Source: Gammaproteobacteria bacterium
GTDB lineage: Bacteria; Pseudomonadota; Gammaproteobacteria; Ga0077536
Length of the DNA stretch: 64,000 bases
Assembly (NCBI GenBank): GCA_016209015.1
Contig: JACQWY010000002.1
Location: 77,622 to 141,621 of the forward strand
Direction of reading: 5' to 3'
The notes under the pieces were generated by a model. That model was not told the DNA's origin. It saw nothing but the letters and a program-made list of their open reading frames with translations, and ran no database searches. A program made the position numbers and the translations under genes. Shown one piece after another: positions 4,712 through 23,568 of the stretch. Positions within the stretch are counted from its first letter, which is position 1. Every line of letters begins with the position of its first letter.

Positions 4712-6058
4712 ATGTCAGCGAACAACACTGCGCCGGCCGGCCAGAGCGGAAAGGACAGCGGCTCGTCCGGCGCCGGAGGCGGCAAGGTCGCCCATCTGTT
4801 CGGCGCGAAGAAGAAGAGCGGAACGCGCAGCGCGGCGCTCGGCTCCGCGCAGCTCCACATGCTCGCCGGCGCCCTCTGTGCAGGCGCGGTCGGCGTGTTG
4901 CTGTTCGCGGCGGCGGGCGCGGGCGTGACGGCGGGCTTCCTCGTCACGGCGGGACTCGCGATTGCGCTCGTCGGCAGCGGCGTCGCGGTACTCGCGAAGC
5001 TCTCCAAGGCGGCAGCCGCGGCGCAGAAGTCGCTCGAAGAGCAGACGGCGAAGCACGCGACGGAATCCCAGCGCAACCAGTCGGCGATCCTGCGTCTCCT
5101 CGACGACATGGGCGCGCTGGCCGATGGCGATCTGACCGTGAAGTCGAAGGTGACCGAGGACATCACGGGCGCGATCGCCGACTCCGTGAATTACACGGTG
5201 GGCGAGCTCCGCAGCCTCGTGACCCGCGTGAACGACGCTTCCGCGGAAGTGCTGCAGAAGACGACGGGCGCCGAAGCGCTCTCCGTCACGGTGCTCGAGG
5301 CCGCGCAGCGACAGGCCGACCAGATCAAGCTCGCCAGCACGCAGGTGATGGGCGTCGCGGACTCGGTGAAGGACGTCTCGAGCAAGGCGACGGACTCGGC
5401 GCGCGTCGCGGGGCGCTCACTCGAGGCGGCGGAAGCCGGCGGTGCCGCGGTGGAGAACTCCATCAAGGGCATGAACGAAATCCGCGAGAACATCCAGGAG
5501 ACCTCGAAGCGCATCAAGCGTCTCGGCGAGAGCTCGCAGGAAATCGGCGAAATCGTCGAGCTCATCTCCGACATCACCGAGCAGACGAACGTGCTCGCCC
5601 TGAATGCGGCCATCCAGGCCGCCGCGGCGGGTGAAGCGGGCCGCGGCTTCGCGGTGGTCGCCGAGGAAGTGCAGCGTCTGGCCGAACGATCCGGCGAAGC
5701 CACGAAGCAGATCGGCAATCTCGTGAAGACGATTCAGCGCGACACGCAGGACGCGGTGGCCGCCATGGAGCGCAGCACGGTCGGCGTGGTGGAAGGCGCG
5801 AAGCTCGCCGACGCGGCGGGTGATTCGCTGCGCCAGATCCGACAGGTGTCGAACGATCTCGCCCGCATCATCGAGGACATCTTCGGCAAGACGAAGGAAC
5901 AGGCCGTGGTCGCGGACGAAGTGGCGAACACGATGCAGTCGATCCTCGGCATCACGGACGAGAACACGCGGGGCACGATGCAGATGACGGAATCCGTCAC
6001 CCAGCTCGCGAGCCTCGCGAGCGAGCTCAAGCAATCGGTATCCGGATTCAAGCTCTAG
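4712..6058 (+). CDS. pilJ: Methyl-accepting chemotaxis protein PilJ
   Basis: ORF track. There is an N-terminal TM region. The MCP signalling domain with the highly conserved hairpin tip is LALNAAIQAAAAGEAGRGFAVVAEEVQRLAERS. SD GGAGG lies upstream of the ATG. Confidence 0.85.
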   Translation: MSANNTAPAGQSGKDSGSSGAGGGKVAHLFGAKKKSGTRSAALGSAQLHMLAGALCAGAVGVLLFAAAGAGVTAGFLVTAGLAIALVGSGVAVLAKLSKAAAAAQKSLEEQTAKHATESQRNQSAILRLLDDMGALADGDLTVKSKVTEDITGAIADSVNYTVGELRSLVTRVNDASAEVLQKTTGAEALSVTVLEAAQRQADQIKLASTQVMGVADSVKDVSSKATDSARVAGRSLEAAEAGGAAVENSIKGMNEIRENIQETSKRIKRLGESSQEIGEIVELISDITEQTNVLALNAAIQAAAAGEAGRGFAVVAEEVQRLAERSGEATKQIGNLVKTIQRDTQDAVAAMERSTVGVVEGAKLADAAGDSLRQIRQVSNDLARIIEDIFGKTKEQAVVADEVANTMQSILGITDENTRGTMQMTESVTQLASLASELKQSVSGFKL

Positions 6059-6074
6059 ACGGAGCGTACGCCCA

Positions 6075-9000: not shown

Positions 9001-11105
9001 AAGCGCACGGCGAAGCGGTCGTACGCCATCTGCACACGCTGAAGGGCTCGGTCCGGGCCGCGGGCGCGATGCAGCTCGGCGACTTCGCGCATGCGAGTGA
9101 AGCGCGCATTCAGACCATGCTGCTCAACGAGACCGCGGATCCCGAGTGGCTCGAAGCGCTGCAGCAGTGGTTCGACACGTGGCTCATCGCAATCGACGCG
9201 CTGAAGTCGGCGCGTGCCGGCCAGCTCGGCGGCGCGGCGCAACGAAGCGTCGCCGAAGGTCAGCGCCCCGCGCCGCGCGCGACCGGCCAGCTACGGGTCG
9301 CGACGGAAACGGTCGAACACCTCATCGAAGCCTCGAGCGAGCTCGGGCTCACCCGCGCCCGTACCGCGAACGAAGTGGACGGGATCGGTCAGGGTGTCGC
9401 GGATCTCAAGGAATCGATCGTGCGCCTGCGTCAGCAGATCCGCGAAGTCGAGATCCAGGCGGAATCGCAGATGAGCGCCCGCCAGACGCAGATCGAGGAA
9501 GACAACGCCGCCTACGATCCGCTCGAGTTCGACCGCTTCACGCGCCTGCAGGAGCTCACGCGTCAGATGGCGGAATCGCTGCACGATGTCGTGACGGTGC
9601 AACAGAACCTGCAACGCCACCTAGACGACGTCGAGGAAGTCCTGGAGCGCCAGGGCTCGCTCAGCCGGGACATGCACGGCGCGCTCATGCGCATCTATGC
9701 CGTGCCGTTCGGGACGGTGACCGAACGTCTCGAGCGCGTGGTGCGGCAGGCCACGTCCGCGCTCGACAAGGCCGTGCGCCTCCACGTGCGCGGCGCCGAG
9801 GTCGAGCTCGACCGCGGCATTCTCGATCGCATCGTCGGACCGCTCGAGCACCTGCTGCGCAATTCTATCGCGCACGGCATCGAAGCCGGCGCGGAACGTC
9901 TCGCCGCGGGCAAGCCCGCGGCCGGCCGGCTCGACGTCGTGGTGCGCCAGGATGCGAACCGCGTGACGATCGAAGTGAGCGACGACGGGCGCGGTCTCGA
10001 CCTCGCGAGGATCCGCGCCAAGGCGGAGACCGCGGGCATCGTCGCGCCGGGCGCGGAGCTCACGGAGCAACAGTTGCGCGCGCTGATCTTCGCGCCCGGA
10101 CTCAGCACCGCGGAGTCGGTGACGGAGGTGTCGGGGCGCGGCATCGGCATGGATGCCGTGCGCAATGCCGTGCAGACGCTCGGCGGGACCATCGACATCC
10201 GCACGGAAGCAGGCCGCGGGACGACGTTCCTGGTGCACCTGCCGCTCACCGTCGTGGTCGTCTCCGTCGTCACCGTGATGGTCGGCGGGCGTCAGTTCGC
10301 GATCCCCGCGAATCTCGTCCGGCAGGCGCAGCGGATGAACGGGACGGCGCTGCGCGAGCTCTACGCCCGCGGCGAATCGGCGTGGCAGGACGAGCGCTAT
10401 CCGTTCCACCACTTGAGCGAGCTCATCGGCAAGCGCGTCGCGCCCACCGTGAACGAGCGCGGCAACATGGTGCTCTACCTCGGCGCGGACGAACGCCGCG
10501 TCGCGATTCACGTCGACAGCCTGTCCGTCACCCAGGACGTGACGCTGAAAGACATGGGCCCGCAGCTCGGCCGCGTGCCGGCTCTCGCCGGTGCGAGCGT
10601 CACGGGCGCCGGGCGGGTGCTGCTCGTGATCGATCCACTGCAGATGGTGAGCCGCGTGGCCGCGGCGAAGCGCGAGGACGACAAGACGAAAGGCGCCGCA
10701 CGGCGCCAGCCGCTCGTCCTCATCGTCGACGACTCGATCACCGTGCGCAAGGTCACGAGCCGGTTGATGGAACGCGCGGGCTATCGCGTGGCGACGGCGA
10801 AAGACGGTGTCGAGGGTCTCGAACAGATGCACGCGAAACGGCCGGACATCGTGCTGCTCGACATCGAGATGCCGCGCATGGACGGCTTCGAGTTCACGAA
10901 GCACGTCCGCAGCGAGGCAGCGACGGCTGCGCTGCCGATCGTGATCATCAGCTCGCGTACGGCGGACAAGCACCGTCAGCACGCGGAACGTCTCGGCGTG
11001 AATCTCTTCCTCGGCAAGCCGTACGAGGACGACCGGCTCCTCGCGGCGGTGGCGTCTCTGGTCGGTGGTGAAGGAACCGACGCGCTGCCGCGCACCGGCA
11101 CGTGA
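6075..11105 (+). CDS. chpA: ChpA-type multi-Hpt CheA histidine kinase with C-terminal receiver (Pil-Chp system)
   Basis: 1676 aa. Several Hpt-like blocks: HTLKGSSRVVGL, HTLAGIGRTVRID, HTLKGSVRAAGAM. HATPase_c region: GRGIGMDAVRNAVQTLGGTIDIRTEAGRGTTFLVHLPLT. A CheW-like domain is followed by a REC domain (PLVLIVDDSITVRK...DIVLLDIEMPRMDGFE). Confidence 0.85.
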   Translation: MIAQTDMDALRIVAPEIDRVLALTASALTDGANAELARQCERDLHRLRGAFEMAAAPGLARFCECFTAGYCASLADPANRSRWNALLERALAALKRCVRDAEHNGAVQSMLLFPLYVDMKRALGEDKVSASDLYYPEVDVERSRGEPVTLPAQDSTAVAKLARGRYQRALLAWLRGDGVAPAAMLRAVTTVDQLFGAQSNFWWVACGFLDGIRAGGFTIDSHLKRICARIDLQIARICDGANLVSDALLREMLYFIGRCTVDTTRISELREAYALDDDARNGAAESDDPAARAAALSAVHTAQRTLEGLAGGGAGAEAAFDAAIERLNACIDTLREPAVKAAGNAVGTEAQELRSGGRNYEKDAVSLAGLLLALERVLDERTAQPGATAELNALLEGGTTTGGTTNRLDAALGQEIRKSLKQVEHALESLTAAAVPRDVAPALNPLRRAGAALAIASQTEAAQLLAHAEGLVRELADSPTPETQIETLAECLGGAELFVEAACRGSNGREVILPLLRKLGLAPADEPPGEPAATQPATVEQALALERRGVQDLLHNWQRSSERVVDELKNNLQAIHQDALLVADREVRERSAHALSLLQAAPPAIDPQLRDAVAAVGGVMGGRGQAPAAVDVASDPEVLDVYLEEAREVLDTVRAHLASDARTPEGLREVRRYYHTLKGSSRVVGLVHMGEVAWSVERQLNAWLDADLDATPALLAAVGAVAEAFAGWVENLADHGSTGVDAAALQAGIDALTPASATAPEPVPAAQADVEPEPPAAGAAPNPDHVRLGPEFTVSRALLDIFRSEAAQHLATLRTDADSAAPGDTVRRTALRAAHTLAGIGRTVRIDAVAGLAAALEAWLERMLDAGAAMEEECRALFVEAVDSLGAMLATIEGEALPIADTALRDKLEAAAAAVVAAEEAAFVEQEIAIPAALLEAAFMQGVNPEILPVVLDEAHDLGAAIGRELVGWRESPDEEAHGEAVVRHLHTLKGSVRAAGAMQLGDFAHASEARIQTMLLNETADPEWLEALQQWFDTWLIAIDALKSARAGQLGGAAQRSVAEGQRPAPRATGQLRVATETVEHLIEASSELGLTRARTANEVDGIGQGVADLKESIVRLRQQIREVEIQAESQMSARQTQIEEDNAAYDPLEFDRFTRLQELTRQMAESLHDVVTVQQNLQRHLDDVEEVLERQGSLSRDMHGALMRIYAVPFGTVTERLERVVRQATSALDKAVRLHVRGAEVELDRGILDRIVGPLEHLLRNSIAHGIEAGAERLAAGKPAAGRLDVVVRQDANRVTIEVSDDGRGLDLARIRAKAETAGIVAPGAELTEQQLRALIFAPGLSTAESVTEVSGRGIGMDAVRNAVQTLGGTIDIRTEAGRGTTFLVHLPLTVVVVSVVTVMVGGRQFAIPANLVRQAQRMNGTALRELYARGESAWQDERYPFHHLSELIGKRVAPTVNERGNMVLYLGADERRVAIHVDSLSVTQDVTLKDMGPQLGRVPALAGASVTGAGRVLLVIDPLQMVSRVAAAKREDDKTKGAARRQPLVLIVDDSITVRKVTSRLMERAGYRVATAKDGVEGLEQMHAKRPDIVLLDIEMPRMDGFEFTKHVRSEAATAALPIVIISSRTADKHRQHAERLGVNLFLGKPYEDDRLLAAVASLVGGEGTDALPRTGT

Positions 11106-11118: not shown

Positions 11119-11859
11119 TCAGCGGGCGGGCGTGAAGCTCGCGCCTTCCCGCGCGGCCGGCGCGGCGTCGAAGAGCAGGAAAGCGCGGTCCCCCTTCACG
11201 TTCATGTAGGAGACCGCGGCGCCGCGACGCCACTGAAAGCTCCGGCCGTCGCCGTCCGCGCCCGCCGCCCAGCGCCAGGGCGCGAAGCCCTGCATATTGC
11301 CCACGATAGAAATCCAGTACGGCTGCCCGCCCTCGAGCACGATCGGCTCGTCGAGATCGGCGTCGAAGCGGAACGCGTCGTTGCCTGCGGCCTCGCGCTT
11401 GAAACGCTTCACCTGACGGCGGGCGACGACCCCCGCATCGTCCTCGGGCGCGAACGCGGGCTCGCTCACCGCCGGCTTCTGCCGGTAGACCGTGATCGTG
11501 AAACCATGTTCGGGCAACGGCTGTCCCTCGCCCCACCACGCCATGCGCGCAATTTTCGTCGTACGGTGCAACGTGACGTTGTCGAAGGCGGCGCTGTCGG
11601 AATCGAGACCGTCCGCGGCGATGGTCTGCTGCGAGTCGACGAAGCCGCCGGCCGGCCTGGCTGCGGGTTGGGCATAGACCTGGATCGCGAGCGCGCCCTG
11701 CGTCGTCGCGAGCAGCGCGGCGGCGAGCGCGGGCCCGGCGCATCGCCGCGCCGGCACACTCCCCGGAATCACCGCCGCGTCGCTCAATGCAAGCCCACGC
11801 GTCGGCGGTATTCCGCGACGACGCGATCGGCGCTCGCGAATCCTTCGAGCCGCAGCCAC
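11119..11859 (-). CDS. Hypothetical secreted protein, last gene of the MCO operon. The true start is probably internal, just before the signal peptide.
   Basis: ORF track 11119..11859 on the minus strand. A signal-peptide-like stretch GPALAAALLATTQGALAIQVYAQ is followed by a Trp-rich soluble domain. I recognise no family. The gene overlaps the SCO1 gene's 3' end. Confidence 0.35.
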   Translation of the reverse strand: MAAARRIRERRSRRRGIPPTRGLALSDAAVIPGSVPARRCAGPALAAALLATTQGALAIQVYAQPAARPAGGFVDSQQTIAADGLDSDSAAFDNVTLHRTTKIARMAWWGEGQPLPEHGFTITVYRQKPAVSEPAFAPEDDAGVVARRQVKRFKREAAGNDAFRFDADLDEPIVLEGGQPYWISIVGNMQGFAPWRWAAGADGDGRSFQWRRGAAVSYMNVKGDRAFLLFDAAPAAREGASFTPAR

Positions 11860-12464
11860 GGCTCGCCGGGCTTCGCCCGCATGAAGACGACGGGGATGTG
11901 ATTCATCTTGTCACCGCGAAATGTCTTGAAGGCCTTTTGCAGCGCGATGCTGTTCTCGACGGAGCCGGTATAGAACTGCCAGCTCGGCCCGGCCTCGAAC
12001 TTCTCCGCATAGGCCGGCAGCGGACCGCTCACCGTGTCGTTCTCGGGGTCGATGGAAATGGAGACGAGGTGCGGCATCGGACCGTCGGCGGCGAGCTTGT
12101 CCTGCACCTGGGCGAACGTGCGGCTCAGGATCGGACAGATCGCCGTGCAGGTCGTGAAAATGAAGTTCACGAGCACCGGACGACCGTCGTCGAGCTCGGC
12201 CGGGAATTCGACCTTGCGGCCGTCGTGACGCTGCATGCCGAGCTTCGGGATCTCGACGCGGTCCTCCGCGCGTTTGACGTCCTGCGGGGCGTTCGCCAGG
12301 TGCTGAGCGTGCATGTCGTGGTTCATGCCCGAATGGTCCATCTGCGAATGATCCATGGGCGCCATGTCTTCGGCCCGCACACCGGATGCGGCACCGAGCC
12401 CGAGGCAGGCGATTGCGATCCATGCGCCGCGCGTCAGGCGCCTGCAGCCGCCGGTTTCGTGCAT
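11784..12464 (-). CDS. SCO1/SenC-family copper chaperone (thioredoxin fold) with a His/Met-rich N-terminal metal-binding stretch
   Basis: Start MHETGG at 12464. The complement of ATG was verified, and GAGAGAGGA lies upstream. CxxxC motif FIFTTCTAICP plus a downstream conserved His. His/Met cluster: MDHSQMDHSGMNHDMHAQH. Signal/TM segment: AWIAIACLGLGAASGVRA. Confidence 0.75.
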   Translation of the reverse strand: MHETGGCRRLTRGAWIAIACLGLGAASGVRAEDMAPMDHSQMDHSGMNHDMHAQHLANAPQDVKRAEDRVEIPKLGMQRHDGRKVEFPAELDDGRPVLVNFIFTTCTAICPILSRTFAQVQDKLAADGPMPHLVSISIDPENDTVSGPLPAYAEKFEAGPSWQFYTGSVENSIALQKAFKTFRGDKMNHIPVVFMRAKPGEPWLRLEGFASADRVVAEYRRRVGLH

Positions 12465-12490: not shown

Positions 12491-14302
12491 TCAGGGTACC
12501 GTCCACTCGCCCTCGGCGACCAGCGCCGTGTCGTCCGGCTTCTCGTAGCGGACGACGTAAGCGCCTTTCGAGGCATGGCGCTGCCCGGGCCCGAGACTCA
12601 GGCGCGGATAGACCGTGGTGCCGCTCTGGTGCGCGCGGGGCCCGCCTTCCCGGGCCAGCGCCGCGATCTCGGCCGCCGCGTCGAGGCGCTTGGCGTTCGG
12701 CAGGACGCGATTGCCGCCGGGCTTCCTGACACCGAGCGCGGCACGGTCGCGCGCCTCCTGCTCGGCCTTGCTGGCCTCGCGCCTGCTCAGCATATTCTCG
12801 GCGCGCTCGATCAGATAATCCCGATAGAGATTGTCGAGCATCTCGGCCGTCGTGTTCGTGAGGAAGCTGATCGCGAAGAAGACCTCGGACTGCAGCGGCT
12901 CGTCGACGATTTCGACCTTGGACATCTTGCTCCAGGAACGGAAGTAGGCGAGGTTCGCGCGCCGCTTCGCCGGCAGCTCGTAGGGATAGACGATCTTCGA
13001 CGCGGCGCGCCAGGCTGCGGGCAGCGGCGCGTAATCCGGCCGGCCGAGCGTCGCCGAGACGAGATACGTCGCGCCTGCGACGGGCTGCGTCGCGGCAAGA
13101 TCATCGGGCCTCGCGAAGAGCATGACGTGATCGCCGGCGCGCACGCCGGCGAGCGCGGACGCGAGACCGCCCGTTCCCAGCACGCGCTCGTCGGCCTTCA
13201 CCTCGGCGCGCGCGAGGGCTGCGGCGAACGCTGCGCCGGCGCTGCGGCCCGGTTCGTCGTCGTGACGGATCGCGATCACCCGCGACGGCTTCGTGCCGCC
13301 CACCGGCGCGATCGCGTCGGCCGCGACCGCCGCCTCGAGCCGCACGCCTTGCGAGAAATACAGACCGTACTGCGATGTCACGGGCGGCGCCGGCACGCTC
13401 GGGAACCACAGTGGCAGATGCTGCGCTTCGCAGAACTCGTGCACGGGCGCCCAGTCGGAGTCGGAGATGCCCGAGATGAGCGCGAATGCGGGCTGACGAC
13501 GGTAGAACTCGCCGAGCTGTGCGCCCCAGGTCTTCGCATCGCCCTTCAGCTCCCAGACCTCGAGCGCCCATTTGCGCTCCGTCCCGAGCACGAGCTCCGC
13601 GGCCGTGACCATGTGGCGGCGACGGGCGCGATGCAGGCCCGGCACGGTGCTCGCGTTCTTCTGATCGAACGCGCGCCGCAGCGTGTCGAGCATCGCCTGA
13701 CGCCGTGCCGGCGCGACGCCCGGCGCAATCACCGTGGCGAAGTGGATCGTCTCCTGCTCCGCACCCGGCGAACGTTCGCGCGAGAGCTGCTTCAGGTAGG
13801 CGACGATCGCGGCGGAGTCCTCGGGCCCGAGGTCGTAGCGCGGCATCATCACGCCGAGCGTCCGTCCGTCGGCCGTCGTGCCCTCGCGGATCGCGGTGGT
13901 GAGCGTTTCCTCGTCGTAGTCGGCATGTGCCTGGTTGAAGGCCTTGCCGCGTCGCGGATCCATGGTCGCGACGACGCGTTCGGCATCGTTGAACAGGGCC
14001 TTGCCGGTGATGGGCGGCACGATGATGTCGCCCTCCACCGAGCCCATGCCGCTCTTGCGATGGCATTGCGCACACGCGGCGCCGCGGCCGTCGACCGGCG
14101 TCTCGTTCGCGCGGGAACCGTGCAGCGGCTGGCCCGAGGGCAGCATGCCCTCTTCGTAGATCATGCGGCCGCGTTCGAGCACGGAGGGTGCCGCCGCCGC
14201 GAATCCGCAGACGAAGAACAGCGCCAGCGCCGCGCCCAGACGGCGCGCGAGGTTCGGATCGAGGCGCCGCGGCGAAGGCGGCGCGCCGCGCCGCATGCTC
14301 AT
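12491..14302 (-). CDS. c-type cytochrome domain protein (CxxCH) fused to a large periplasmic domain; a MofC-like accessory cytochrome
   Basis: ORF 12491..14302 on the minus strand. Signal peptide LGAALALFFVCGFAAAAPS. Heme-binding CAQCH. The start ATGA overlaps the stop of the upstream FKBP gene at 14299-14302. Confidence 0.7.
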   Translation of the reverse strand: MSMRRGAPPSPRRLDPNLARRLGAALALFFVCGFAAAAPSVLERGRMIYEEGMLPSGQPLHGSRANETPVDGRGAACAQCHRKSGMGSVEGDIIVPPITGKALFNDAERVVATMDPRRGKAFNQAHADYDEETLTTAIREGTTADGRTLGVMMPRYDLGPEDSAAIVAYLKQLSRERSPGAEQETIHFATVIAPGVAPARRQAMLDTLRRAFDQKNASTVPGLHRARRRHMVTAAELVLGTERKWALEVWELKGDAKTWGAQLGEFYRRQPAFALISGISDSDWAPVHEFCEAQHLPLWFPSVPAPPVTSQYGLYFSQGVRLEAAVAADAIAPVGGTKPSRVIAIRHDDEPGRSAGAAFAAALARAEVKADERVLGTGGLASALAGVRAGDHVMLFARPDDLAATQPVAGATYLVSATLGRPDYAPLPAAWRAASKIVYPYELPAKRRANLAYFRSWSKMSKVEIVDEPLQSEVFFAISFLTNTTAEMLDNLYRDYLIERAENMLSRREASKAEQEARDRAALGVRKPGGNRVLPNAKRLDAAAEIAALAREGGPRAHQSGTTVYPRLSLGPGQRHASKGAYVVRYEKPDDTALVAEGEWTVP

Positions 14303-14994
14303 TTGATTTCCACGAGCTCGAAGTCGTAGATCAGCACTTCGTTCGGCGCGATGTCACCGCCGACGCCGCGCTCGCCGAAGCCGAGCTTCGGCGGAATGAC
14401 GAGCTGCCACTTCGAGCCAAGCGGCATTTCGGCGACGGCGTCGCGCACGCCTTCCGGTGTGATGCCCGTCATCTTCACCGTCGCAGTCTGATCGCCCTGC
14501 GTGCCGACGAACTCCATGCCCGCGGTCGTGGTGCCGCGGAACCTGCAGACTATCGTGTCGTCCTTCGTCGGCTTGCGGCCGGCGCCGGCCTTGACCACTT
14601 TGTACTGCACGCCGTTCGACAGCTCTTTCACGCCTTCCCTGCTCTTGTTCGCGGCGAGGAAGGTGTCCGCCTTCTTCGCGTTCTCCTGTGCGGCGAGCTG
14701 GCGGGTGACGCGCGATTTGCGGACGAGCTCGGCCATGAACTTGTTCATGATGTCCTTGAGCTCGGCTTCGGAGATCGCGATGCGCTCACCGGACATGCCA
14801 TCGCGCAGTCCGCGCACCATGGCCTCGACGTTGATCTCGACCTGATCCTTCTTGAAATTGCGTGCGGTCTGCACGCCGATGCCATAGCTCAGGCGATCCT
14901 GTTCCGTCTTCAGCGCGGGCGCTTCGTCCTTGGCATGGACCGCAACGGTCCACGCCAGAGCCATGAGGGCGAGCGCAAGAGGCTTCGGTGTCAT
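14299..14994 (-). CDS. FKBP-type peptidyl-prolyl cis-trans isomerase (FkpA/Mip-like), periplasmic
   Basis: Start MTPKPLALALMALAWTVAVHA at 14994. The complement of ATG was verified, and AAGGAA lies upstream. FKBP C-terminal domain: GVQYKVVKAGAGRKPTKDDTIVCRFRGTTTAGMEF...PLGSKWQLVIPPKLGFGERGVGGDIAPNEVLIYDFELVEI. Confidence 0.8.
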   Translation of the reverse strand: MTPKPLALALMALAWTVAVHAKDEAPALKTEQDRLSYGIGVQTARNFKKDQVEINVEAMVRGLRDGMSGERIAISEAELKDIMNKFMAELVRKSRVTRQLAAQENAKKADTFLAANKSREGVKELSNGVQYKVVKAGAGRKPTKDDTIVCRFRGTTTAGMEFVGTQGDQTATVKMTGITPEGVRDAVAEMPLGSKWQLVIPPKLGFGERGVGGDIAPNEVLIYDFELVEIK

Positions 14995-15194: not shown

Positions 15195-15704
15195 TCAGCG
15201 CGCGATGTGGTTCTCGGGCAGCGGATTCACGAGCAGATGGCTCGACGCCACTGCAGCGCCATCCGGATTCGCCTCGCCCGCGGCGGCCGGCGTCGTGGTG
15301 ACGCTGAAGTTGCCGTTGACGTTGCGCTTGCCCCCGGCGGTGTCGAGCGTGCCGTAGACGACGCCGCTGAGCGCGTAGGACACGCTGCCGTCGGCGTCCG
15401 TCACGGTCTTCAACACCACGCGGGAGATGTGCCCGCTCAGGCTCGTCGCGCCGTCGTTGAATTCGAGCGTGCCGTCCTTGAACGTCGCGGCGCCCGAGCG
15501 CGGATCGCCGCTGGAGGGTTTGGAAGTGGTGAGGCTGATCGGACGGCCGCTCACCGCGATCTCGTGATCGGCAGTGATGCTCATGCTGCCCGATTCCACG
15601 CCGCCCTGGTTCGGGTCGGGGAGGACGAGGGGCAGGCCCCATGCCGCCGAGACCAGCGAGGCGGCGAGACCGATCGAGGCCAAGGTCTTGTGCACGATGT
15701 TCAT
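15195..15704 (-). CDS. Hypothetical small secreted protein (~169 aa) inside the MCO operon
   Basis: Start MNIVHKTLASIGLAASLVSAAWG at 15704. The complement of ATG was verified, and AAGGA lies upstream. Composition is Ser/Thr/Gly-rich, and I recognise no domain. Confidence 0.5.
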   Translation of the reverse strand: MNIVHKTLASIGLAASLVSAAWGLPLVLPDPNQGGVESGSMSITADHEIAVSGRPISLTTSKPSSGDPRSGAATFKDGTLEFNDGATSLSGHISRVVLKTVTDADGSVSYALSGVVYGTLDTAGGKRNVNGNFSVTTTPAAAGEANPDGAAVASSHLLVNPLPENHIAR

Positions 15705-15951
15705 AGTCGTAATCCTTCTGGATGTGTGTCGCTGATCCGTCTGTCGCCGCGCTTCGTAGCGTGCACGGCACGTTCCGGACCCTTGCTGCAAGAAACCCTC
15801 GTGGCGAATCCGGCCGCCCGGGCGCTGTGTTCGTTCGAAGCGATGATGTTCATCTTCCCTTCTCCCTCCACGCAGATGCCCGTTAGTCCGTTTCCGCCTT
15901 CGCCTCACGCCGCGGTAAAGCGGCGCGAGGCTGCATCGACCCGCGCTACGC

Positions 15952-18900
15952 TCAGTTCAGCGTGACGGTCGCCGTGGCCGGAGCCGACGTCAGACCGCCG
16001 TAGTTCAGCTGATACGTGAACGTATAGGTTCCGCGCTTCTGCACCTGACGCTGGGCCGGGGTCAGCCCCGTTCCCACCGGCGTCAGGGCGATGTTGCACG
16101 AACCCGAAGTCGGAGCGCAGGTCAGGGTCGCCGTGGCGCCGCCGTTGACGGAGTTCAACGTACCGACCGTCACCGTACCGCCGGACGCCGAGGACGGCGT
16201 GTCGTTGGTGCGGATGTTGAAGCTGACGGTCTGCGTCGAGTTCGTCGTCGACTGCGTCGCGGGGAACGTGAAGCTGTCGCTCACGGTTACGGGCGCAACC
16301 AGCGTGGTGGCCGACGACGGGGTGGCGGCGAAAGCCGAGCTGCCCCAGGCGTTGGCCCGTACGCGGAAGCTGTAACGTGTGGCCGGCTGCAGACCCGTCG
16401 TCGGCAGCGACGTTCCGGTCGCTGCGTTGTTCAGGGTCGTCCAGCCGTTCCCGTCACACGGACTCGCCACGGTGTTCGCACACTGCTGCTGCTGCACCGT
16501 GTAGTTGACCGCAGCGGAAGAACCGTTCCAGCGGATCGTCATGGACGTGCTCTGGATGTTGTTCGGCCCGGCCATCGTCGGAGTCGATGGGACACGCAGC
16601 GTGGTCAGTGTCTTCGCGTTGGAGTACGGCAGGCCCGGATGCCCGGCCACCACCGGCTGCGCGAAGTACGTATACGTCGTACCCGGCGCTGCGGTCGTGT
16701 CGGCCCACGGACTGCCGGCCGCGGCGGAGAACGTCGTACGACCGCTCGTGCAGGTCCCAAAGGTCTGCGTGCCCGTGCAGCGCACGGCGCTATAGGAGTC
16801 CACGCTGAACGAGAGGTTCGACCACGTCAGATCCACCTGCGTCTTGCCGGGCGCGCTCACCGCATTGAGGTCGGCGATCGCGAGGCTCACCGCCGTCACG
16901 TTGATGTTGACCGGCGCCGACTTCTGCACGCCGTCCTTGCCGACGACCGTCACCGCGTAGCTGTACGCATTGCCGGGCGTGAGGCTCGTGTCGGCATAGG
17001 GACCGGCCGCGACCGTCGAGGTCATGTCGGGTGTACGGTCGACTTCGAACGTCACCGCGTTCGGGTTGTCGTTCGTCCAGTCGAGCGACACCGCCCACGG
17101 GGTGAGCGAGCCGTTGACGATCTGGAGAGCCGATACCGGCTGCGGTGCCGTGGTCACGTTCAACGAGGCGTCGGCCGTGCCGTCCGCACCCGAGATCGTC
17201 ACCGTATAGGCGTAATCGGAGTTCGCACTCACGTTCTCGTCCGTCCACGTCGTCGTGCCCGTGAGACCCGACGCAACGGGGGTGCCGTCACGGCTGATCG
17301 TCGCGTTCAGGCCCGCCGTGTTCGCGTTCGCCGGATACGTCCAGCTCAGCACGACGCTCGTCGCCGTGTGGGTCTGCGTGAACGTGGCGATGGCCGGCGC
17401 AGTCGTCACGTCCTTCGAGACCGTGAACGCATTGCCGTTCGCGCCGGTCACCGTCACCGCATAGCTGAAGGCCGCATTGGCAGCCAGCCCGGCATCGGTG
17501 TAGGTGTCCGCGGCCAGAATCTGCGCCCCGGTCAGCGTGGCGACGACATCGCCGTTGCGGGCGATCTCCACCTTCTGGAGGGCGCTGAGATTCGGGTTCG
17601 CGTTCGCCCAGCGCAGCGTCACGGCGCTCGCGGTCACGTCACCGGCCCGGGCAGCTTCGAAGCTCGCCGGCACGGCGTCGGTGGTCGCGGAGACCGTGTT
17701 GCTGTGGATCGAGGAGCCGTGTTTCGCGACGACATCGAAGAAGTACGTCGTGTTCGCCGCGAGACCCGTGATGACGGAGTTGAGATCGGTCAGCGAGGCA
17801 TTCACGTCGGCGAGGGCATCGGCCGCGAAGCCGTCCTCGACCTGGTAGCTCGTCGCGTTCTGCGACGAGGTCCAGCTCAGCGCGACGGAGCTCGAGTTCA
17901 CCGTCCCCAGCGTCAGCGTGAAGGTGCCGGGCGGCGTGAGCTGCAGGAGGGCCTGCGACCACGCGGTCGGCTTGATCGAGGTCTTCGGATCGCTATACGG
18001 CGTCATAGGACCCTGCTGGGCCGAGTTGTACGCACCGACGCGGAACGCGTAGTCCGTATTCGGCGTGAGCGTGGCACGCTCGATGGACGCCGACTCGGTA
18101 TTCGCGATCGCGGTCGAGACCGTCTGCCAGGCATTGGCGTCGAGGATCGGTTCATCGCCGTTGTAGCCGGTGATGGGCTGCATCTGCACCATGAAGCCGA
18201 TTTCGTTCATCGGGTTGCCGAGGTTGGCAGGCTTGTCTTCCACCAGCGTCGCCGGCGTCGGATCCTGCCAGGTCAGGTCGATCTTCTGCGCATCGGCGGT
18301 CGCGCTGAGCGTGCCGGGTGCGGTCGGAGCGACGACCGACGCCTTCGTGTCCATCACGAACGGACGCATGAAGTCGTTTTCCTCATGGCCCAGGATGTGA
18401 CAGTGCCAGACGTACTCGTTGTCGAAGTCCTCGAGCCTGTTCTGCACGAGCAGCGGGTTGTTGGTCTGCGGATCGATCTGCGTGAAGCCGGTGGTCACAC
18501 CCACTTCCTGCGAGGGATCGTCCGTGCGCACGCTGCGCGGCTGACCGAAAGGCGTCTTCGGGGCAACGGCCTTGACCGCGACGATGACGTCCTCGAGCGG
18601 ATTCATCTTCACGGTTTCCTTCCAGCCGACTTCGTTCGCTTCCGGCGGCTTGATCGTGCCGTCCCAGCCCACGCGGTTGATCAACTGCACATTCACGAGG
18701 TGGAAGTGCACGGGGTGCGCGTCGACGCCGTTGTGGGTGATCTTCCAGATCTGCACCTGGCCCTGCGGAATCGTCTCCGTCGTCGGGTCGATGTAGTTCA
18801 GCGGAATCGTCGTCTGGGTCAGCGCGCTCGTGAACGGGAGCTCGACACCGAGCGTCGCGTTCATGCGGCCGTAGAAGGGTTCGAAGAGCTCCTGAATCGC

Positions 18901-21723
18901 CTTGTTCTGCACGTCGTAGGCCGTCGTTGCAGAGCTCACGTTGTCGGGATTGGCGAGATCGTAGCGATCCATGATCGCCATGGCGGCGGCACCGCCACCG
19001 CTCATCGTCGCGGTGGCCTTGGCCTGCGTGCCGCCCGCCGGCGGATCGATGGTCACCTTGAGGGGCGCGGCGAGGACCTGCGGCAAACCGGCGGCGGCCA
19101 GCGTCACGCCGGAGACCTGGCCCGTGGCCGAGACCGTCGCCGTGGCGGCGACGGAGGTGACGGGCACGTCGTGGGCATCGGTCAGCGTGACCGCGGGCGG
19201 GGACGCCTGGCTGTAGCCCGTGCCGCGCACCGTCACGACCACCCGGCTCGGCACCTGGCCGAACGTCACGGTCGGGGCGGCGGTATAACCCGCGCCGGCA
19301 CTGCTGAGCGAGAGGCCCTGCACGATGCCGGGATGCGCGGGATCCATGATGGCCGTGGCGGCGGCCTGCGTGCCGCCGGCCGGCGGCGCGGCGAGCGTCA
19401 CCGGCGGCATGAACGTGTAACCCGTACCGCCGCCGCTCAACGCGAAGGAGTTGACACGCAGGGCTTCACCCGCGACCGGGGTATCCGTCGCGTAGAACTT
19501 CGGCAGGTTCGCGGAACCCGTGAAGATCGACGCGTAGTTGTCGCCGTAGGTCGTGCCGAGTGCGTCGTTATAGGCGATCTGGCCCGCGACCGGCGGATCC
19601 TGCACGGCCTTGTACGCCGCGTGCAGCGCGTCGTTGAGCGCCACGGCATCGAGCGGTGCGGCCGGCGCGGCGGCCCGGACGTGGATCTGCATCACCGTAC
19701 GCGTATTCGGACCGTAGCCGGGCTTCGTGCTCGGCGCGCCGCCGGCATCGGTCTGATCACCGTTGCCGGTGTAGTAGTCGCTACGCGGGTCGAAGCCCGG
19801 GTTCGGCGCCGGCCCATCGTTGTAGAGGATCAGCGTCTTGCCCGCGAACTGCGAGAAGTCGACCACGACGTCCGCCCGTTCCGCCGGTCCGAGGTAGAGG
19901 GCGTGGCAGTCCGGATAGCAGGCCTGCGAGGGATCCTCGTTCTGCGAGACGTTCAACACGGTGGCGGTGCGGCGGTTGTAGTCGTAGTTCTCCGGCACGG
20001 GCTTGACCGTGCTGACATTCGGCATCAGGCCCGCTTCATTGCCGATCTGGTACATGACCGGACCGACGGTCGTCGGATCGGGTACGCCACCCGCGCGGGA
20101 GTCGGTCGGCCAGTTGTACGGGAAGCCCGGGGTTGCCGTGGCCGGCACCATCTTGACCTCGGTGCAGTCCTCGATGTCGGTCGGCGCGTTCGGGCTGCCG
20201 TCGCAGAGCTTCAGGCCGGGGCTGTTGAGCGGATCCTCGGGGTTCGTCGTGTTCTTGTCGGCGGCGACGTAGAATCCGAGGTTCAGGAAGCGGTCGTTGC
20301 CCGCGGCGAGGATGCGGAAGCGATAGGCCTTCGGATCCACGGTCATCGTCGGATACGCGGTACCGTTGACGACCGAGGTGTCCATGAACGCTTCCGGCGT
20401 CGTCGTCTCGTCACCGTAGGCACCGGTGGGCAGCGCGTACTGCGCCGGGAACACCGGCCAGAACCACGGCCCCCAGTCCCAGCGGCCGACGGCGTTCGCG
20501 CCGCCCTTCTGGTTCGGATCCTGGTTCGTCTCGTAGACGTGCGGGAACCACAGGTCGCCGGGCTGGCCCCAGGTCATCGGATCCCACAGCGCGTCCTGCG
20601 TGTCGATGTCCGCCGGTACGAACGTCTTGTCCTGGATGACGAGCGGGATCTGCTCGCCGGGCAGACCGCCCGCGGCGAGGATGGTTTCCGCCTGCGGATC
20701 CGTCAGCACGTAACCCGCAGCTTCGCCCGCATACACGTTCAGGCGCGTGAGGCCCGAGGTGTGGTCGTGGTAGAACATGAAACGCGCGCTCTGGTCGTTC
20801 GTCCAGTACAGCGTCGCGGAGCCCTCACCCGGATCGACCATGTCGGGCACGTTCTGGAAGCTCTGACCCTTCTTGTAGTGCGCACCCGTATCGCCGACCG
20901 GCACGGTCCACTGGTGCGGCGTACCATCGGAAATCCACGGCGTGAGACCGCCATGGAGGTGAATCTCCGCGCGGTTCTCCGTGAACATCGGAGCGTCGGG
21001 GCCATCGGGACCGAAGCCCGCACCCGGCAGGGTGTGGTCGACCGGGATGAACAGGTCGCCATTGCGTTTGCCGGTTTCGGGATCGAACTTGCCGATCGGC
21101 AACAGGTTGCTGTATTTCATGCGCACCGGCTTGCCCTTCGTCGCGAGGATGATCGGGCCGAGGTAGTGCGGCTTCGCGTAGGCATAGACCTGCTTGCCGT
21201 CGACCATGATCGCGTTGCCGTCGAGGTAGGTCAGCGGATAGCACTCGCTGCCCGCGCTCTTCGCGCCACAGTCGCCGGCCGCGGTCGCCGCCGCGTCGAT
21301 CTGCACGTAGCCGCGCAGCGTCGTCGCCTTCGGCAGATCGCTGTGCATTTTCTCGGTGTACTCGACGATGCCGATCCAGTAGTAATCCGAACCCGGATAG
21401 CTCGCCGTGTCCGCCGCGGCAAGCGGGAGAGACTGGCCGAGGTTGTTCACGCCGGCGTTCGTCGAGGGCGCGAGGCCCGGCACGCTGGACAGCGTGTCGA
21501 CGAACTTGCGGAGCGCCGTACCGGACTGGTGAGCGTTGCCCGCCCAGTCCGTGTAGTCGCCGCTGGGGCTGTTCGCGAAATACGTGGGGACCGGGAACTC
21601 GAGGCCTCCCAGATCCATGCCGCTGCCGAGCCCGGCGCCCGCGAATGCGGAATCCATGGCGGCGGGCAGCGTCGCGAGTAGGAATAGCGACCCTATCCGG
21701 GATCGCGTTTTGCGTCGGCTCAT
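15952..21723 (-). CDS. Giant multicopper oxidase (~1924 aa): N-terminal cupredoxin/MCO catalytic region followed by ~8 FN3/Ig-like repeats. MnxG/MofA-like candidate Mn(II) oxidase.
   Basis: Start MSRRKTRSRIGSLFLLATLPAAMDSAFA at 21723. The complement of ATG was verified, and GGAGGA lies upstream. Copper-ligand motifs: IHLHGG and FMFYHDHTSG (N-terminal HxH pairs), HPVHFHLV and WHCHILGHEENDFM (C-terminal HxH and HCH..H..M, the type 1/trinuclear site). The C-terminal ~800 aa are tandem ~90-aa repeats rich in Thr/Ser/Ala with conserved W/Y positions, typical of FN3 domains. Confidence 0.8.
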   Translation of the reverse strand: MSRRKTRSRIGSLFLLATLPAAMDSAFAGAGLGSGMDLGGLEFPVPTYFANSPSGDYTDWAGNAHQSGTALRKFVDTLSSVPGLAPSTNAGVNNLGQSLPLAAADTASYPGSDYYWIGIVEYTEKMHSDLPKATTLRGYVQIDAAATAAGDCGAKSAGSECYPLTYLDGNAIMVDGKQVYAYAKPHYLGPIILATKGKPVRMKYSNLLPIGKFDPETGKRNGDLFIPVDHTLPGAGFGPDGPDAPMFTENRAEIHLHGGLTPWISDGTPHQWTVPVGDTGAHYKKGQSFQNVPDMVDPGEGSATLYWTNDQSARFMFYHDHTSGLTRLNVYAGEAAGYVLTDPQAETILAAGGLPGEQIPLVIQDKTFVPADIDTQDALWDPMTWGQPGDLWFPHVYETNQDPNQKGGANAVGRWDWGPWFWPVFPAQYALPTGAYGDETTTPEAFMDTSVVNGTAYPTMTVDPKAYRFRILAAGNDRFLNLGFYVAADKNTTNPEDPLNSPGLKLCDGSPNAPTDIEDCTEVKMVPATATPGFPYNWPTDSRAGGVPDPTTVGPVMYQIGNEAGLMPNVSTVKPVPENYDYNRRTATVLNVSQNEDPSQACYPDCHALYLGPAERADVVVDFSQFAGKTLILYNDGPAPNPGFDPRSDYYTGNGDQTDAGGAPSTKPGYGPNTRTVMQIHVRAAAPAAPLDAVALNDALHAAYKAVQDPPVAGQIAYNDALGTTYGDNYASIFTGSANLPKFYATDTPVAGEALRVNSFALSGGGTGYTFMPPVTLAAPPAGGTQAAATAIMDPAHPGIVQGLSLSSAGAGYTAAPTVTFGQVPSRVVVTVRGTGYSQASPPAVTLTDAHDVPVTSVAATATVSATGQVSGVTLAAAGLPQVLAAPLKVTIDPPAGGTQAKATATMSGGGAAAMAIMDRYDLANPDNVSSATTAYDVQNKAIQELFEPFYGRMNATLGVELPFTSALTQTTIPLNYIDPTTETIPQGQVQIWKITHNGVDAHPVHFHLVNVQLINRVGWDGTIKPPEANEVGWKETVKMNPLEDVIVAVKAVAPKTPFGQPRSVRTDDPSQEVGVTTGFTQIDPQTNNPLLVQNRLEDFDNEYVWHCHILGHEENDFMRPFVMDTKASVVAPTAPGTLSATADAQKIDLTWQDPTPATLVEDKPANLGNPMNEIGFMVQMQPITGYNGDEPILDANAWQTVSTAIANTESASIERATLTPNTDYAFRVGAYNSAQQGPMTPYSDPKTSIKPTAWSQALLQLTPPGTFTLTLGTVNSSSVALSWTSSQNATSYQVEDGFAADALADVNASLTDLNSVITGLAANTTYFFDVVAKHGSSIHSNTVSATTDAVPASFEAARAGDVTASAVTLRWANANPNLSALQKVEIARNGDVVATLTGAQILAADTYTDAGLAANAAFSYAVTVTGANGNAFTVSKDVTTAPAIATFTQTHTATSVVLSWTYPANANTAGLNATISRDGTPVASGLTGTTTWTDENVSANSDYAYTVTISGADGTADASLNVTTAPQPVSALQIVNGSLTPWAVSLDWTNDNPNAVTFEVDRTPDMTSTVAAGPYADTSLTPGNAYSYAVTVVGKDGVQKSAPVNINVTAVSLAIADLNAVSAPGKTQVDLTWSNLSFSVDSYSAVRCTGTQTFGTCTSGRTTFSAAAGSPWADTTAAPGTTYTYFAQPVVAGHPGLPYSNAKTLTTLRVPSTPTMAGPNNIQSTSMTIRWNGSSAAVNYTVQQQQCANTVASPCDGNGWTTLNNAATGTSLPTTGLQPATRYSFRVRANAWGSSAFAATPSSATTLVAPVTVSDSFTFPATQSTTNSTQTVSFNIRTNDTPSSASGGTVTVGTLNSVNGGATATLTCAPTSGSCNIALTPVGTGLTPAQRQVQKRGTYTFTYQLNYGGLTSAPATATVTLN

Positions 21724-21949
21724 CTCTCGAATCCTCCGATTCAGACCTCGGTTGCCGCGGGCTGCCAGGGGCCGCCGGCGGGGCGTTTCGTCTGGCTCCC
21801 CACCCGCCGATCGGGGTGCGATCCGTTCGCCCGAGAGGTCCGGGCGGGACACGCACCACGGGCACGGAGCCCAGGTGTGCGGCAGGATGTCGCATGGCGA
21901 TCCCGCATTGCGATTCGGTCAAACGCGCGGGGGGCGGAGGGGAATTCGT

Positions 21950-22130
21950 GGTAGGGAAAGACTGTAGAGGCCCGCGCTATGTCACTGAATTAGCACGGCT
22001 AGTGATTTAGATTCGCATTACGGGGATCAATTTACTGTCATTCGCCCTACTTTCGGACGATTTTGCCCCGGCGCGGTGCCACGGGGCGTTGATGAACAAT
22101 AATGCATTGCATTTGCATCACGGGATCCCG
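21950..22130. promoter_or_regulatory. AT-rich divergent control region between the MCO operon and the hemerythrin-GGDEF gene, containing a TGCAT direct-repeat cluster
   Basis: Local GC is far below the window average. AATGCATTGCATTTGCAT sits at about 22101-22118. The region lies between divergent starts at 21723 (minus) and 22375 (plus). Confidence 0.3.
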
Positions 22131-22374
22131 GCTCGGCGGGCATTCAAAACTATTGTTTCCCGGCCGCGCCCGCTGCGCTGCCCGCGAATTGACGGACGTC
22201 AAGGTTCGGAACGCCCGCGCGGGGTTTGATGCATCCTGGAGCCGCAGGGCGGGGCCGGCCGCGGGTCCGGTGAGGCTGCGGGCCGCTACGAGCGCAGGGA
22301 GGAAGGAACGCTCGAATGATCAGACCACTCGCCGGCTGTCGTTGACAGGACCGCTGCCACGGGCTCACGCATCC

Positions 22375-23568
22375 ATGGAAACCTTCGTCTGGGACCGCCA
22401 CTTCACCACCGATCTCGACACGGTGGACGATCAGCACCACGCGCTCGTCGATTTGATCAACCGGCTCGGCGAGCACCTCGTCGCGGGCCCGGCCGACGAC
22501 ACCGATCTCGAAGCGATATTCGGGCAGCTCGCCGAATACGCGATCTACCACTTCGCCGAAGAAGAGAATCTGATGGCCGCCTCGGGCGTCGACCCGCGGC
22601 ACGTCGACGAGCACAAGGACTTGCACCGGCGCTTCGTCAACCAGGTCCAGAGCATGTGGCACGCGCGGCGCACGATCGCGACCGCCACGACCGTCCTCCA
22701 CGAATTCCTCGCCGCCTGGCTGAGCTTCCACATCCTCGGCGAGGATCAGGCGATGGCGCGCCAGATCAAGCGCATCGCCGAGGGAGAATCGCCGGGCGTC
22801 GCCTACGCGCGCGAGGCGGACCCGGTGGACAACGCGACGACGGCGCTGCTCGGCGCGCTGCGGAATCTCTATCACGTGCTGTCAGCGCAGAACGACGATC
22901 TCGTCATCGCGAATCGCAATCTCGAACAGCGCGTCGCGGAACGTACCGAGGCACTGGCACGCGCGAACGCCGCGCTCACCGACGCAAATCGTCAGCTCGA
23001 GAAGGCCTCGCGCACCGACGGCCTGCTCGGTATCGCGAACCGCAAATACTTCGACGAGAAGCTGCGCGAAGAATGGCAGCGCGGCCGGCGGGAACGTCAT
23101 CCGCTGGGGCTCATCATGCTCGACGTCGATCACTTCAAACGCTACAACGACAGCTACGGTCACATCGCCGGCGATGCCTGCCTGCGCGCCGTCGCGGGGG
23201 CGGCCGGCGGGGCGCTGAAACGTCCGGGCGACCTCATCGCGCGCTACGGCGGGGAGGAGCTCGTCATCATGCTGCCGCACACCGACGTCGCGGGCGCGCT
23301 CGCCGTTGCGCGACAGGTCCTCGAACACATTCACGCGCTCGCCCTGCCGCACTGTGATTCACCCGTTGCGCCGCACGTCACCGTGAGCATGGGCGTCGCG
23401 TCGCGATTCGCGGATACCGCGCGCAGCGCGGAATCGCTCATTGCCGCGGCGGATGCCGCGCTCTACGCGGCGAAGGAAGCCGGCCGCAATCGCATCTGCG
23501 GCGCGACGCCGCACGATCCGCAAGCCGGCGCGGCTATGCCGGACCAGCCGACCGAGGGGCTGCGCTGA
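22375..23568 (+). CDS. Bacteriohemerythrin-GGDEF diguanylate cyclase (putative O2/NO/redox-sensing DGC)
   Basis: ATG at 22375 is in frame within ORF 22102..23568. N-terminal hemerythrin: HHALVDLINRL...AIYHFAEEENLM...HVDEHKDLHRRF...FLAAWLSFHILGEDQAM. C-terminal GGDEF: GLLGIANRKYFDEKL...LIMLDVDHFKRYNDSYGHIAGDACL...RYGGEELVIML (GGEEL active site). Confidence 0.8.
   Translation: METFVWDRHFTTDLDTVDDQHHALVDLINRLGEHLVAGPADDTDLEAIFGQLAEYAIYHFAEEENLMAASGVDPRHVDEHKDLHRRFVNQVQSMWHARRTIATATTVLHEFLAAWLSFHILGEDQAMARQIKRIAEGESPGVAYAREADPVDNATTALLGALRNLYHVLSAQNDDLVIANRNLEQRVAERTEALARANAALTDANRQLEKASRTDGLLGIANRKYFDEKLREEWQRGRRERHPLGLIMLDVDHFKRYNDSYGHIAGDACLRAVAGAAGGALKRPGDLIARYGGEELVIMLPHTDVAGALAVARQVLEHIHALALPHCDSPVAPHVTVSMGVASRFADTARSAESLIAAADAALYAAKEAGRNRICGATPHDPQAGAAMPDQPTEGLR

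Follow-up and report, generated by a model that had tools for sequence, protein, structure and literature searches.

The window analysed here, a stretch of 64,000 nucleotides (64 kb) of the metagenome-assembled genome (MAG) GCA_016209015.1 (contig JACQWY010000002.1, positions 77,622 to 141,621 of the forward strand), carries a gene for a very large multicopper oxidase (MCO) with a long tail of fibronectin type III (FN3) modules, followed by a set of accessory genes on the same strand. Judged from its sequence, the protein belongs to MofA/OmpB, a family of very large, secreted multicopper oxidases that has been described before. The oxidase gene (21723..15952, minus strand, as are all features of the oxidase given below) comprises 1923 uninterrupted codons of uniform codon bias. 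Its open frame could begin with the GTG at 21852 or the ATG at 21723, and ends with the stop codon at 15952-15954. By direct reading of the sequence, a Shine-Dalgarno motif, GGAGGA, lies at 21732..21737, and its 8-nt spacer from the ATG at 21723 supports this start over the internal Met23. In the public record of the identical protein (P0001, 'MAG: fibronectin type III domain-containing protein [Gammaproteobacteria bacterium]', 1901 aa), Met23 is taken as the start, a choice by which the signal peptide is lost and which has no ribosome-binding site ahead of it. The Sec-type signal peptide proposed in the preliminary description of this DNA was recovered by inspection of residues 1-28 (21640..21723; MSRRKTRSRIGSLFLLATLPAAMDSAFA / GAG), which combine a basic n-region, a hydrophobic core and an A-x-A motif (AFA-G). 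An equivalent N-terminal hydrophobic segment, ending AxA-GAG, is found in the homologue consensus, and residues 1-30 have a pLDDT below 50 in the AlphaFold2 (AF2) model. A lipoprotein reading was rejected, the signal peptide being devoid of Cys.

A gene of this length in GC-rich DNA calls for some caution, as such DNA yields long spurious open reading frames (ORFs), and one of 1680 aa indeed lies on the opposite strand (16639-21681, plus strand). The public annotation, moreover, uses another start codon. Against an artefact, either a frameshift fusion or a chance GC-rich frame, stands first the composition: the G+C content at third codon positions (GC3) is 0.83-0.91 in all 150-codon windows, head and tail alike, whereas the composition of the antisense ORF is mirrored, as in a shadow ORF (0.89 at first positions, 0.61 at third positions) and was rejected as a real gene. 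Second, homologues of ~1950-2060 aa cover 87-96% of the oxidase (for example, P0021 with 40% identity over 95%). Uniform GC3, the shadow composition of the opposite ORF and the cover by full-length homologues together exclude two genes separated by a frameshift, the possibility that had been named beforehand as fatal to the single-gene reading. The confident and meaningful models obtained for both head and tail (see below) point the same way. An RTX-type adhesin of a type I secretion system (T1SS) with oxidase-like motifs is no better a description, since the protein has a signal peptide and no GGxGxD repeat; the T1SS association suggested earlier is unlikely for the same reasons. We thus regard the artefact or adhesin explanation as refuted and as extremely improbable.

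The catalytic head (aa 29-1126; 18346..21639) was delimited by AF2, Foldseek, phmmer and Pfam Cu-oxidase_2, and resembles CotA and the bilirubin oxidases. Its AF2 model, built on an alignment of 79 sequences, has a pLDDT of 79.7 and a pTM of 0.82. With this model, Foldseek retrieved whole CotA (1w6l) and bilirubin oxidase chains (E 2e-32; TM 0.80-0.83, normalised to the ~500-aa target), and phmmer placed the three CotA domains in order on the query (domain 1 at 113-368, domain 2 at 425-484 and 607-649, domain 3 at 976-1043 and 1100-1123). As the whole CotA chain fits the head and the three domains follow in order, the head is a single three-domain MCO with insertions, which settles the choice between three and six cupredoxin domains that had been left to structure prediction (TM 0.82 normalised to CotA). 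A six-domain enzyme of the MnxG/ceruloplasmin type was rejected, because there is one set of copper motifs, with one Cys-containing HCH motif, and one CotA template covers the core. The insertions total ~600 aa, and consist of an N-terminal extension (29-112) and of segments 141-223, 485-606 and 650-975. The last and largest of them, between cupredoxin domains 2 and 3, holds an Ala/Gly/Thr-rich repeat insert (aa ~755-925; 18949..19461) with the motif GxGY(T)xxxP at aa 766, 810 and 834. This motif is in the family consensus, with a copy number ranging from 0 to 5 across the 79 homologues. The insert had no Pfam or NCBIfam match, and the pLDDT falls to 43-56 at aa ~830-930.

All four His-rich copper motifs announced for the first ~1100 residues were located there. 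Motif 1 (HLHGG, aa 255-259; 20947..20961) aligns with the CotA HxH motif and its His255 and His257 correspond by position to ligands of the trinuclear cluster; motif 2 (HDH, aa 319-321; 20761..20769) is also aligned to CotA, and both are invariant in 79 of 79 homologues. Motif 3 (HPVHFH, aa 1003-1008; 18700..18717) aligns with HPIHLH of CotA. Motif 4 (HCHILGHEENDFM, aa 1107-1119; 18367..18405) contains Cys1108, the type-1 copper ligand, and aligns without gaps to CotA 483-506. The ten His, Cys1108 and Met1119 are all invariant in the 79 aligned homologues, whose core identity to the query is 52-64%.

The axial position of the type-1 copper departs from this pattern. In the ungapped alignment of motif 4 (YVWHCHILGHEENDFMRP / YVWHCHILEHEDYDMMRP), Phe1118 stands opposite CotA Met502, the axial ligand of the CotA type-1 copper, and Met1119 stands opposite Met503. 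The axial methionine typical of CotA-type MCOs is therefore absent here and replaced by Phe1118, and Phe occupies the Met502 column in 77 of the 79 close homologues. We also fetched 82 loci from the wider family, of which 40 were of the Phe type and 41 of the Met type, one having both. Every locus from beta- and gammaproteobacteria is of the Phe type (Leptothrix, Gallionella, Ferriphaselus and Crenothrix included), as are the Geobacter group except two, and Geothrix/Holophagaceae. The Met type is found mainly in Actinomycetota, Neobacillus/Ectobacillus, Chloroflexi and Anaeromyxobacter, and in the archaeal loci except one. As far as these alignments go, the family is divided about evenly between Phe-axial and Met-axial members, following taxonomy. 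An axial Phe is a known variant state among MCOs, found in the high-potential fungal laccases, and is compatible with membership of the superfamily; in fungal laccases and in engineered bacterial enzymes, higher type-1 potentials go along with a Phe or Leu here that does not coordinate the copper. Phe1118 would thus predict a three-coordinate type-1 site of raised potential. A search of the literature library combining MofA and the axial ligand found no paper there connecting the two.

The tail that follows the core (residues 1127-1923) is 797 aa long, in keeping with the ~800 aa of FN3-type sequence first described, and is rich in Thr (16%), Ala (15%) and Ser (10%). The whole protein scores 66.8 bits against Pfam fn3. 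Eight modules can be distinguished; when these are scanned alone with a cutoff of 25 bits, modules 2 and 7 are above it, and modules 1, 4 and 5 just below. Module 1 (aa 1127-1262; 17938..18345) is an FN3 domain of seven strands (fn3 22.9 bits, E 1e-4) that owes its length of 136 aa to an internal insertion and to the disordered linker (pLDDT 32-40) that ends it. Module 2 (aa 1263-1348; 17680..17937) is an FN3 domain matching both fn3 (28.1 bits) and Pur_ac_phosph_N (31.7 bits), with seven strands in the AF2 model. Module 3 (aa 1349-1441; 17401..17679), FN3-like, has a weak match to fn3_2 (E 0.023) and seven strands at a pLDDT of 76-95. Modules 4 (aa 1442-1525; 17149..17400; fn3 E 0.002, AF2 pLDDT 82-95) and 5 (aa 1526-1612; 16888..17148; fn3 E 0.007, seven strands in AF2) are again FN3. 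Module 6 (aa 1613-1709; 16597..16887) has no Pfam match, but its seven strands (pLDDT 60-82) are FN3-like; it carries a Cys1649/Cys1658 pair. Module 7 (aa 1710-1808; 16300..16596) is another FN3 domain (fn3 33.7 bits), with six strands counted in the AF2 model, and module 8 (aa 1809-1923; 15955..16299; 115 aa) is a terminal beta-rich module of uncertain type (pLDDT 42-68).

Structure prediction supports the FN3 assignment. The AF2 model of the tail is all-beta, with a pLDDT of 73.2, mostly 60-95 within blocks, and a pTM of 0.33, a value to be expected for a string of beads. It contains seven sandwiches, those of modules 1-6 each having seven strands, and Foldseek matched it to the FN3 strings of titin/MyBP-C, cytokine receptors, contactin and fibronectin FN3 7-10 (E 3e-24 to 1e-13); the repeats do fold as FN3 in prediction, a failure to do so having been set beforehand as grounds for abandoning the assignment. 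Internal comparison completes the picture: modules 3, 4 and 5 are mutually 46% identical (z ~13 for 3 versus 4 and for 3 versus 5), module 6 is 43% identical to module 5 over 58 aa (z 7.5), and module 7 has relatives in modules 1 and 2 (z 6-7). Because this homology links modules 3 and 6 to the others, modules 1-7 form one homologous set of old, diverged repeats with 24-46% identity. The earlier count of about eight FN3-like repeats is accordingly correct for seven modules, the eighth being the terminal one, which is not FN3.

Module 8 is possibly a bacterial Ig domain of the Big_9 type, which it matches over the whole profile with an E of 0.067; it had no NCBIfam match. BLAST against 92 homologues and the 82 loci gave weak, composition-driven matches alone, and a scan of JGI metagenome contigs with modules 7-8 gave no relatives. 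A search of a collection of 5.8 billion proteins returned none either, although it also missed the identical public protein, probably through compositional filtering. Since most homologues end in an FN3 equivalent to module 7, with the motif ...Y.FRV.A.N..G.S...P, module 8 is a lineage-specific addition. The C-terminus (...APATATVTLN) has no LPXTG, PEP-CTERM-like end or C-terminal membrane anchor, which bears out the absence of a sorting signal noted previously.

Core homology, copper motifs, FN3 modules and gene order make the protein an ordinary member of the MofA/OmpB family. It is matched by tblastn with E = 0 to the loci of Leptothrix discophora (L025) and Leptothrix cholodnii (L001), with a core identity of 53.8% over ~1017 aligned residues, and the core is 61-63% identical to proteins of Gallionella, Ferriphaselus and Geomonas. 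In local alignment, identity is 55-57% to proteins named 'laccase' in Geotalea and Geomonas, and the Geomonas one reaches 62% over the aligned core. The family is large: more than 5800 clustered proteins score E <= 1e-10, and the EYVWHCH / HEENDFM core is present in the genomes of at least 588 species, among them Gram-positives, Acidobacteriota, Chloroflexi and archaea. Within it, the tail past the last copper motif varies from ~100 to ~2000 aa and its type follows lineage: FN3 strings occur, and also 'choice-of-anchor D' modules (Gallionella), FG-GAP-like ends (Geobacteraceae) and a membrane anchor (one Dehalococcoidia protein). Of the distant homologues, L012 ends in a membrane anchor. From these sequences, the tail varies freely as a module and has an FN3 at its end in most cases. 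An fn3 domain is precomputed in 68 of the 120 best homologues and, with the range of tail lengths, this makes a long FN3 tail normal for the family: the tail is as long as was first stated, but is not unusual in the way then supposed.

Downstream of the oxidase gene, and likewise on the minus strand, lies a gene for a 169-aa secreted protein with a signal-like N-terminus (15195..15706). No Pfam or NCBIfam family and no relative in a scan of JGI metagenome contigs were found for it; among the 82 loci it has one relative, a 47% identical protein encoded at the corresponding place of a Crenothrix MAG (L023, 9337-9735). Next come a mofB-like gene for a periplasmic FKBP-type peptidyl-prolyl isomerase (14299..14994; Pfam FKBP_N and FKBP_C; 40-42% identity to the syntenic genes of L. 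cholodnii and L. discophora) and a mofC-like gene (12491..14302) whose ATG overlaps the FKBP stop codon (ATGA). The mofC-like product combines one CxxCH cytochrome c domain with a periplasmic-binding-protein domain (Pfam Cytochrom_C and Peripla_BP_6; 42% identity to L. cholodnii and L. discophora). A copper chaperone of the SCO1/SenC family (11784..12464; Pfam SCO1-SenC; 46-47% identity to the syntenic Leptothrix genes) and a 246-aa secreted protein of uncertain start, weakly matching DUF7901 (11119..11859), complete the series, the latter being possibly the last gene of the cluster. In Gallionellaceae, Ferriphaselus and related loci (L005, L006, L018 and L021), relatives of the 246-aa protein are encoded between mofB and mofC; this protein may be a fifth conserved component of these clusters. 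NCBIfam gave generic FKBP names only for the neighbour genes, and a scan of the cluster for promoters and terminators gave counts equal to the shuffle expectation. The order MCO, FKBP, cytochrome c/periplasmic-binding protein, SCO1 is kept in L. cholodnii SP-6 (42-47% identity), L. discophora and ~20 other proteobacterial loci, many of them from Burkholderiales and Gallionellaceae. A mofA-mofB-mofC(-SCO1) cluster has been reported in Leptothrix, Gallionellaceae and Ferriphaselus, and one without mofB for Geobacter OmpB, the MofC-like proteins joining a cytochrome c domain with a periplasmic-binding domain (He et al. 2017, PMC5566968).

Several other genes of the window deserve mention. Upstream of and divergent from the oxidase gene, a hemerythrin-GGDEF diguanylate cyclase (22102-23568, plus strand) could be a regulator that senses O2 or iron and controls some surface or biofilm function. 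On its other side the oxidase cluster adjoins a chemosensory cluster (3700-11105, plus strand) with a response regulator, a methyl-accepting chemotaxis protein and a 1676-aa CheA/ChpA-like hybrid kinase; the L. cholodnii mofA locus (L001, 1-7363) is likewise next to a che cluster, which may be coincidence. An NADP-malic enzyme is closest to proteins of Burkholderiales and Rhodocyclales MAGs (74-77%), and from this similarity the host would be an uncultured organism of betaproteobacterial type. Further away, a purple-acid-phosphatase-like gene (51582-53438, plus strand) is broken by an in-frame TAA at 52710-52712, with Pur_ac_phosph_N before it and the C-terminal part of Metallophos after it, and is probably a pseudogene or a sequencing error.

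Comparison of the related loci also bears on export. In nine proteobacterial loci (L001, L025, L009, L022, L018, L006, L030, L033 and L027), among them both Leptothrix species and Ferriphaselus, a secretin gene (Secretin_N and Secretin) lies within 9 kb of the mofA-type oxidase, which suggests, by analogy, a dedicated outer-membrane export route. Titles cited in He et al. present OmpB as an outer-membrane surface protein secreted via a type II secretion system (T2SS) of an atypical kind (PMC5566968). With a secretin gene beside the cluster in nine related loci, a T2SS-type route, one of those first envisaged, is favoured for the present protein. The display on the cell surface, a sheath or a matrix that had been proposed, together with the link to Mn oxides, is plausible by analogy with OmpB and MofA (PMC5566968).

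Taken as a whole, the locus is probably best explained as encoding a MofA/OmpB-type secreted, stalk-mounted multicopper oxidase for which a metal ion is the most likely class of substrate. The Sec-type signal peptide seen in the sequence would take the unfolded chain to the periplasm, where the mofB-like isomerase and SCO1, whose genes and synteny are conserved, may aid the folding of the protein and the loading of its four coppers. The CotA-like head, with the fold and ligands described above, would then take single electrons at the Phe-axial type-1 copper and reduce O2 at the trinuclear cluster. This chemistry is established for MCOs in general. Phe1118 would make the type-1 site three-coordinate and of higher potential, and so suited to donors that are hard to oxidise, such as Mn(II). 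Passage through the outer membrane would probably fall to a T2SS-like, secretin-based system whose genes lie elsewhere in the genome. Outside, the seven FN3 and the terminal beta module could form a flexible stalk, ~25-30 nm long when extended, at ~3.5 nm per FN3. By comparison with OmpB, MofA and the related loci, such a stalk might act as a spacer or tether for the head, at the cell surface, on mineral particles or on extracellular polymer. The most likely substrates would be reduced metal ions, Mn(II) or Fe(II), with the mofC-like cytochrome c as a possible redox partner.

Several points weigh against this interpretation or some part of it. Biochemical work identified MofA as a Mn-oxidising factor, but deletion of mofA in L. 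discophora SS-1 did not abolish Mn oxidation (bioRxiv 10.1101/2022.11.10.515945), and OmpB has been tied to the reduction of Fe(III) oxide, not to an oxidation (PMC5566968). A survey of 2026 still lists MofA among the Mn-oxidising MCOs, while noting the conflicts with the phenotype. As to the locus itself, no secretin, T2SS or other secretion gene was found in the 64-kb window, the operon is read from gene order, common strand and the ATGA overlap, and the n-region of the signal peptide contains SRRK, with which a Tat route is possible. The axial Phe is assigned by alignment to CotA and not from a copper-containing structure, and module 8, poorly modelled and with no relatives detected, cannot be called an anchor.

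The same evidence may be read in terms of iron. The oxidase would then take part in extracellular electron transfer or iron cycling, serving Fe(II) oxidation or supporting Fe(III)-oxide reduction and not Mn oxidation, with an FN3 tail that binds iron (oxyhydr)oxide and a mofC-like cytochrome linking it to the periplasmic chain. The core is indeed nearer to the proteins of Gallionella, Ferriphaselus and Geomonas (61-63%) than to those of Leptothrix (54%), and He et al. consider these clusters as candidate extracellular electron transfer genes in Fe(II) oxidisers (PMC5566968). In the Fe-rich, Mn-poor iron mats of Leptothrix ochracea, mofA ranks among the genes with the highest expression (PMC11412304). 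The present protein also has three ExxE motifs, a possible Fe-binding motif in OmpB (PMC5566968), but so short a motif is expected by chance in 1923 residues. Furthermore, none of the iron-oxidation markers (cyc2, mtoA) was seen in the examined parts of the window, and the literature demonstrates Fe activity for no member of the family (PMC5566968; 2026 survey). We consider this explanation possible, though somewhat doubtful.

A secreted enzyme of the laccase or bilirubin oxidase kind, acting on organic compounds such as phenolics, humics or pigments, must also be weighed. The closest solved structures are those of CotA laccase and bilirubin oxidases, several homologues bear the name 'laccase' in their sources, and the family is found in many lineages without known metal oxidation (Neobacillus, Micromonospora, methanogen MAGs). 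The FN3 tail would then be a spacer or a polymer-binding module, as in bacterial chitinases and cellulases. However, the 'laccase' names come from automatic annotation and not from experiment, the tight and conserved linkage to a cytochrome c/periplasmic-binding protein, a copper chaperone and an FKBP is untypical of laccase genes, and no substrate genes of aromatic metabolism adjoin the cluster. An organic substrate is therefore unlikely in our view.

To return to a stalk-mounted oxidase of metal ions, one might speculate further about the Phe-axial branch, by which we mean this protein and the sampled loci of Leptothrix, Gallionella, Ferriphaselus, Crenothrix, Geobacter and Geothrix. Its members might be dedicated high-potential extracellular metal oxidases, held on a stalk that keeps oxide formation at a distance and coupled by MofC to the periplasmic electron chain, so that the system would be an energy-relevant electron conduit and not a simple O2-reducing oxidase, with module 8 and the 169-aa protein acting as an anchor pair. 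Such a scheme, as a whole, is a long shot.

MofA/OmpB-type oxidases are widespread, highly expressed in iron mats, and have repeatedly been proposed as Mn or Fe oxidases; to our knowledge, the structure of no member has been solved, nor have the substrate or the location of any been proven. The present locus adds one well-preserved example with every accessory gene, and leaves the overall picture unchanged. Those working on the family may nevertheless find use in the single CotA-like head with its four defined insertions, in the variable tail and in the split between Phe-axial and Met-axial members.

Among known systems, MofA of L. discophora and L. cholodnii shares with the present protein the core (53.8% over ~1017 residues), the four copper motifs, the axial Phe, FN3 after the catalytic core, and downstream genes for FKBP, cytochrome c/periplasmic-binding protein and SCO1. 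It differs in its tail, which is 370 aa long in L. discophora and 712 aa in L. cholodnii, against 797 aa here, where there are also an extra terminal non-FN3 module and the 169-aa gene between the oxidase and FKBP genes. Unlike in the Leptothrix loci, a secretin gene is not adjacent here, and the host, a betaproteobacterial-type MAG, is no known sheath former. OmpB (GSU1394) of Geobacter sulfurreducens belongs to the same family, as judged via the Geotalea and Geomonas proteins and not from the G. sulfurreducens sequence, and also has FN3 after the core and a mofC-like cytochrome and SCO1 in its cluster (PMC5566968). OmpB is described, however, with one FN3, against seven modules here, and the Geobacter cluster is without the FKBP gene present here (PMC5566968); OmpB, moreover, comes from an anaerobe and has been linked to its reduction of insoluble Fe(III)/Mn(IV) oxides.

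The likeness to CotA of Bacillus subtilis and to the bilirubin oxidases lies in the three-cupredoxin fold and in the copper-ligand motifs, all of which align, in spite of an identity of ~16%, a head made more than twice as long by four insertions, and Phe1118 in place of Met502. CotA is a spore-coat protein without a signal peptide or an FN3 tail. MnxG of Bacillus sp. PL-12 and Pseudomonas putida and the ceruloplasmin-type enzymes compare as large bacterial MCOs linked to Mn(II) oxidation on cell or spore surfaces, but the size of the present protein comes from insertions and a non-catalytic tail and not from six domains, and it has one set of copper motifs. Finally, compared with the FN3-containing chitinases and cellulases of bacteria, it is a redox enzyme and not a glycoside hydrolase, and Pfam scans of the protein and of its tail modules detected no carbohydrate-binding module. 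It nonetheless shares with them the arrangement of a catalytic domain followed by tandem FN3 modules, which in those enzymes serve as spacers or surface-binding modules.

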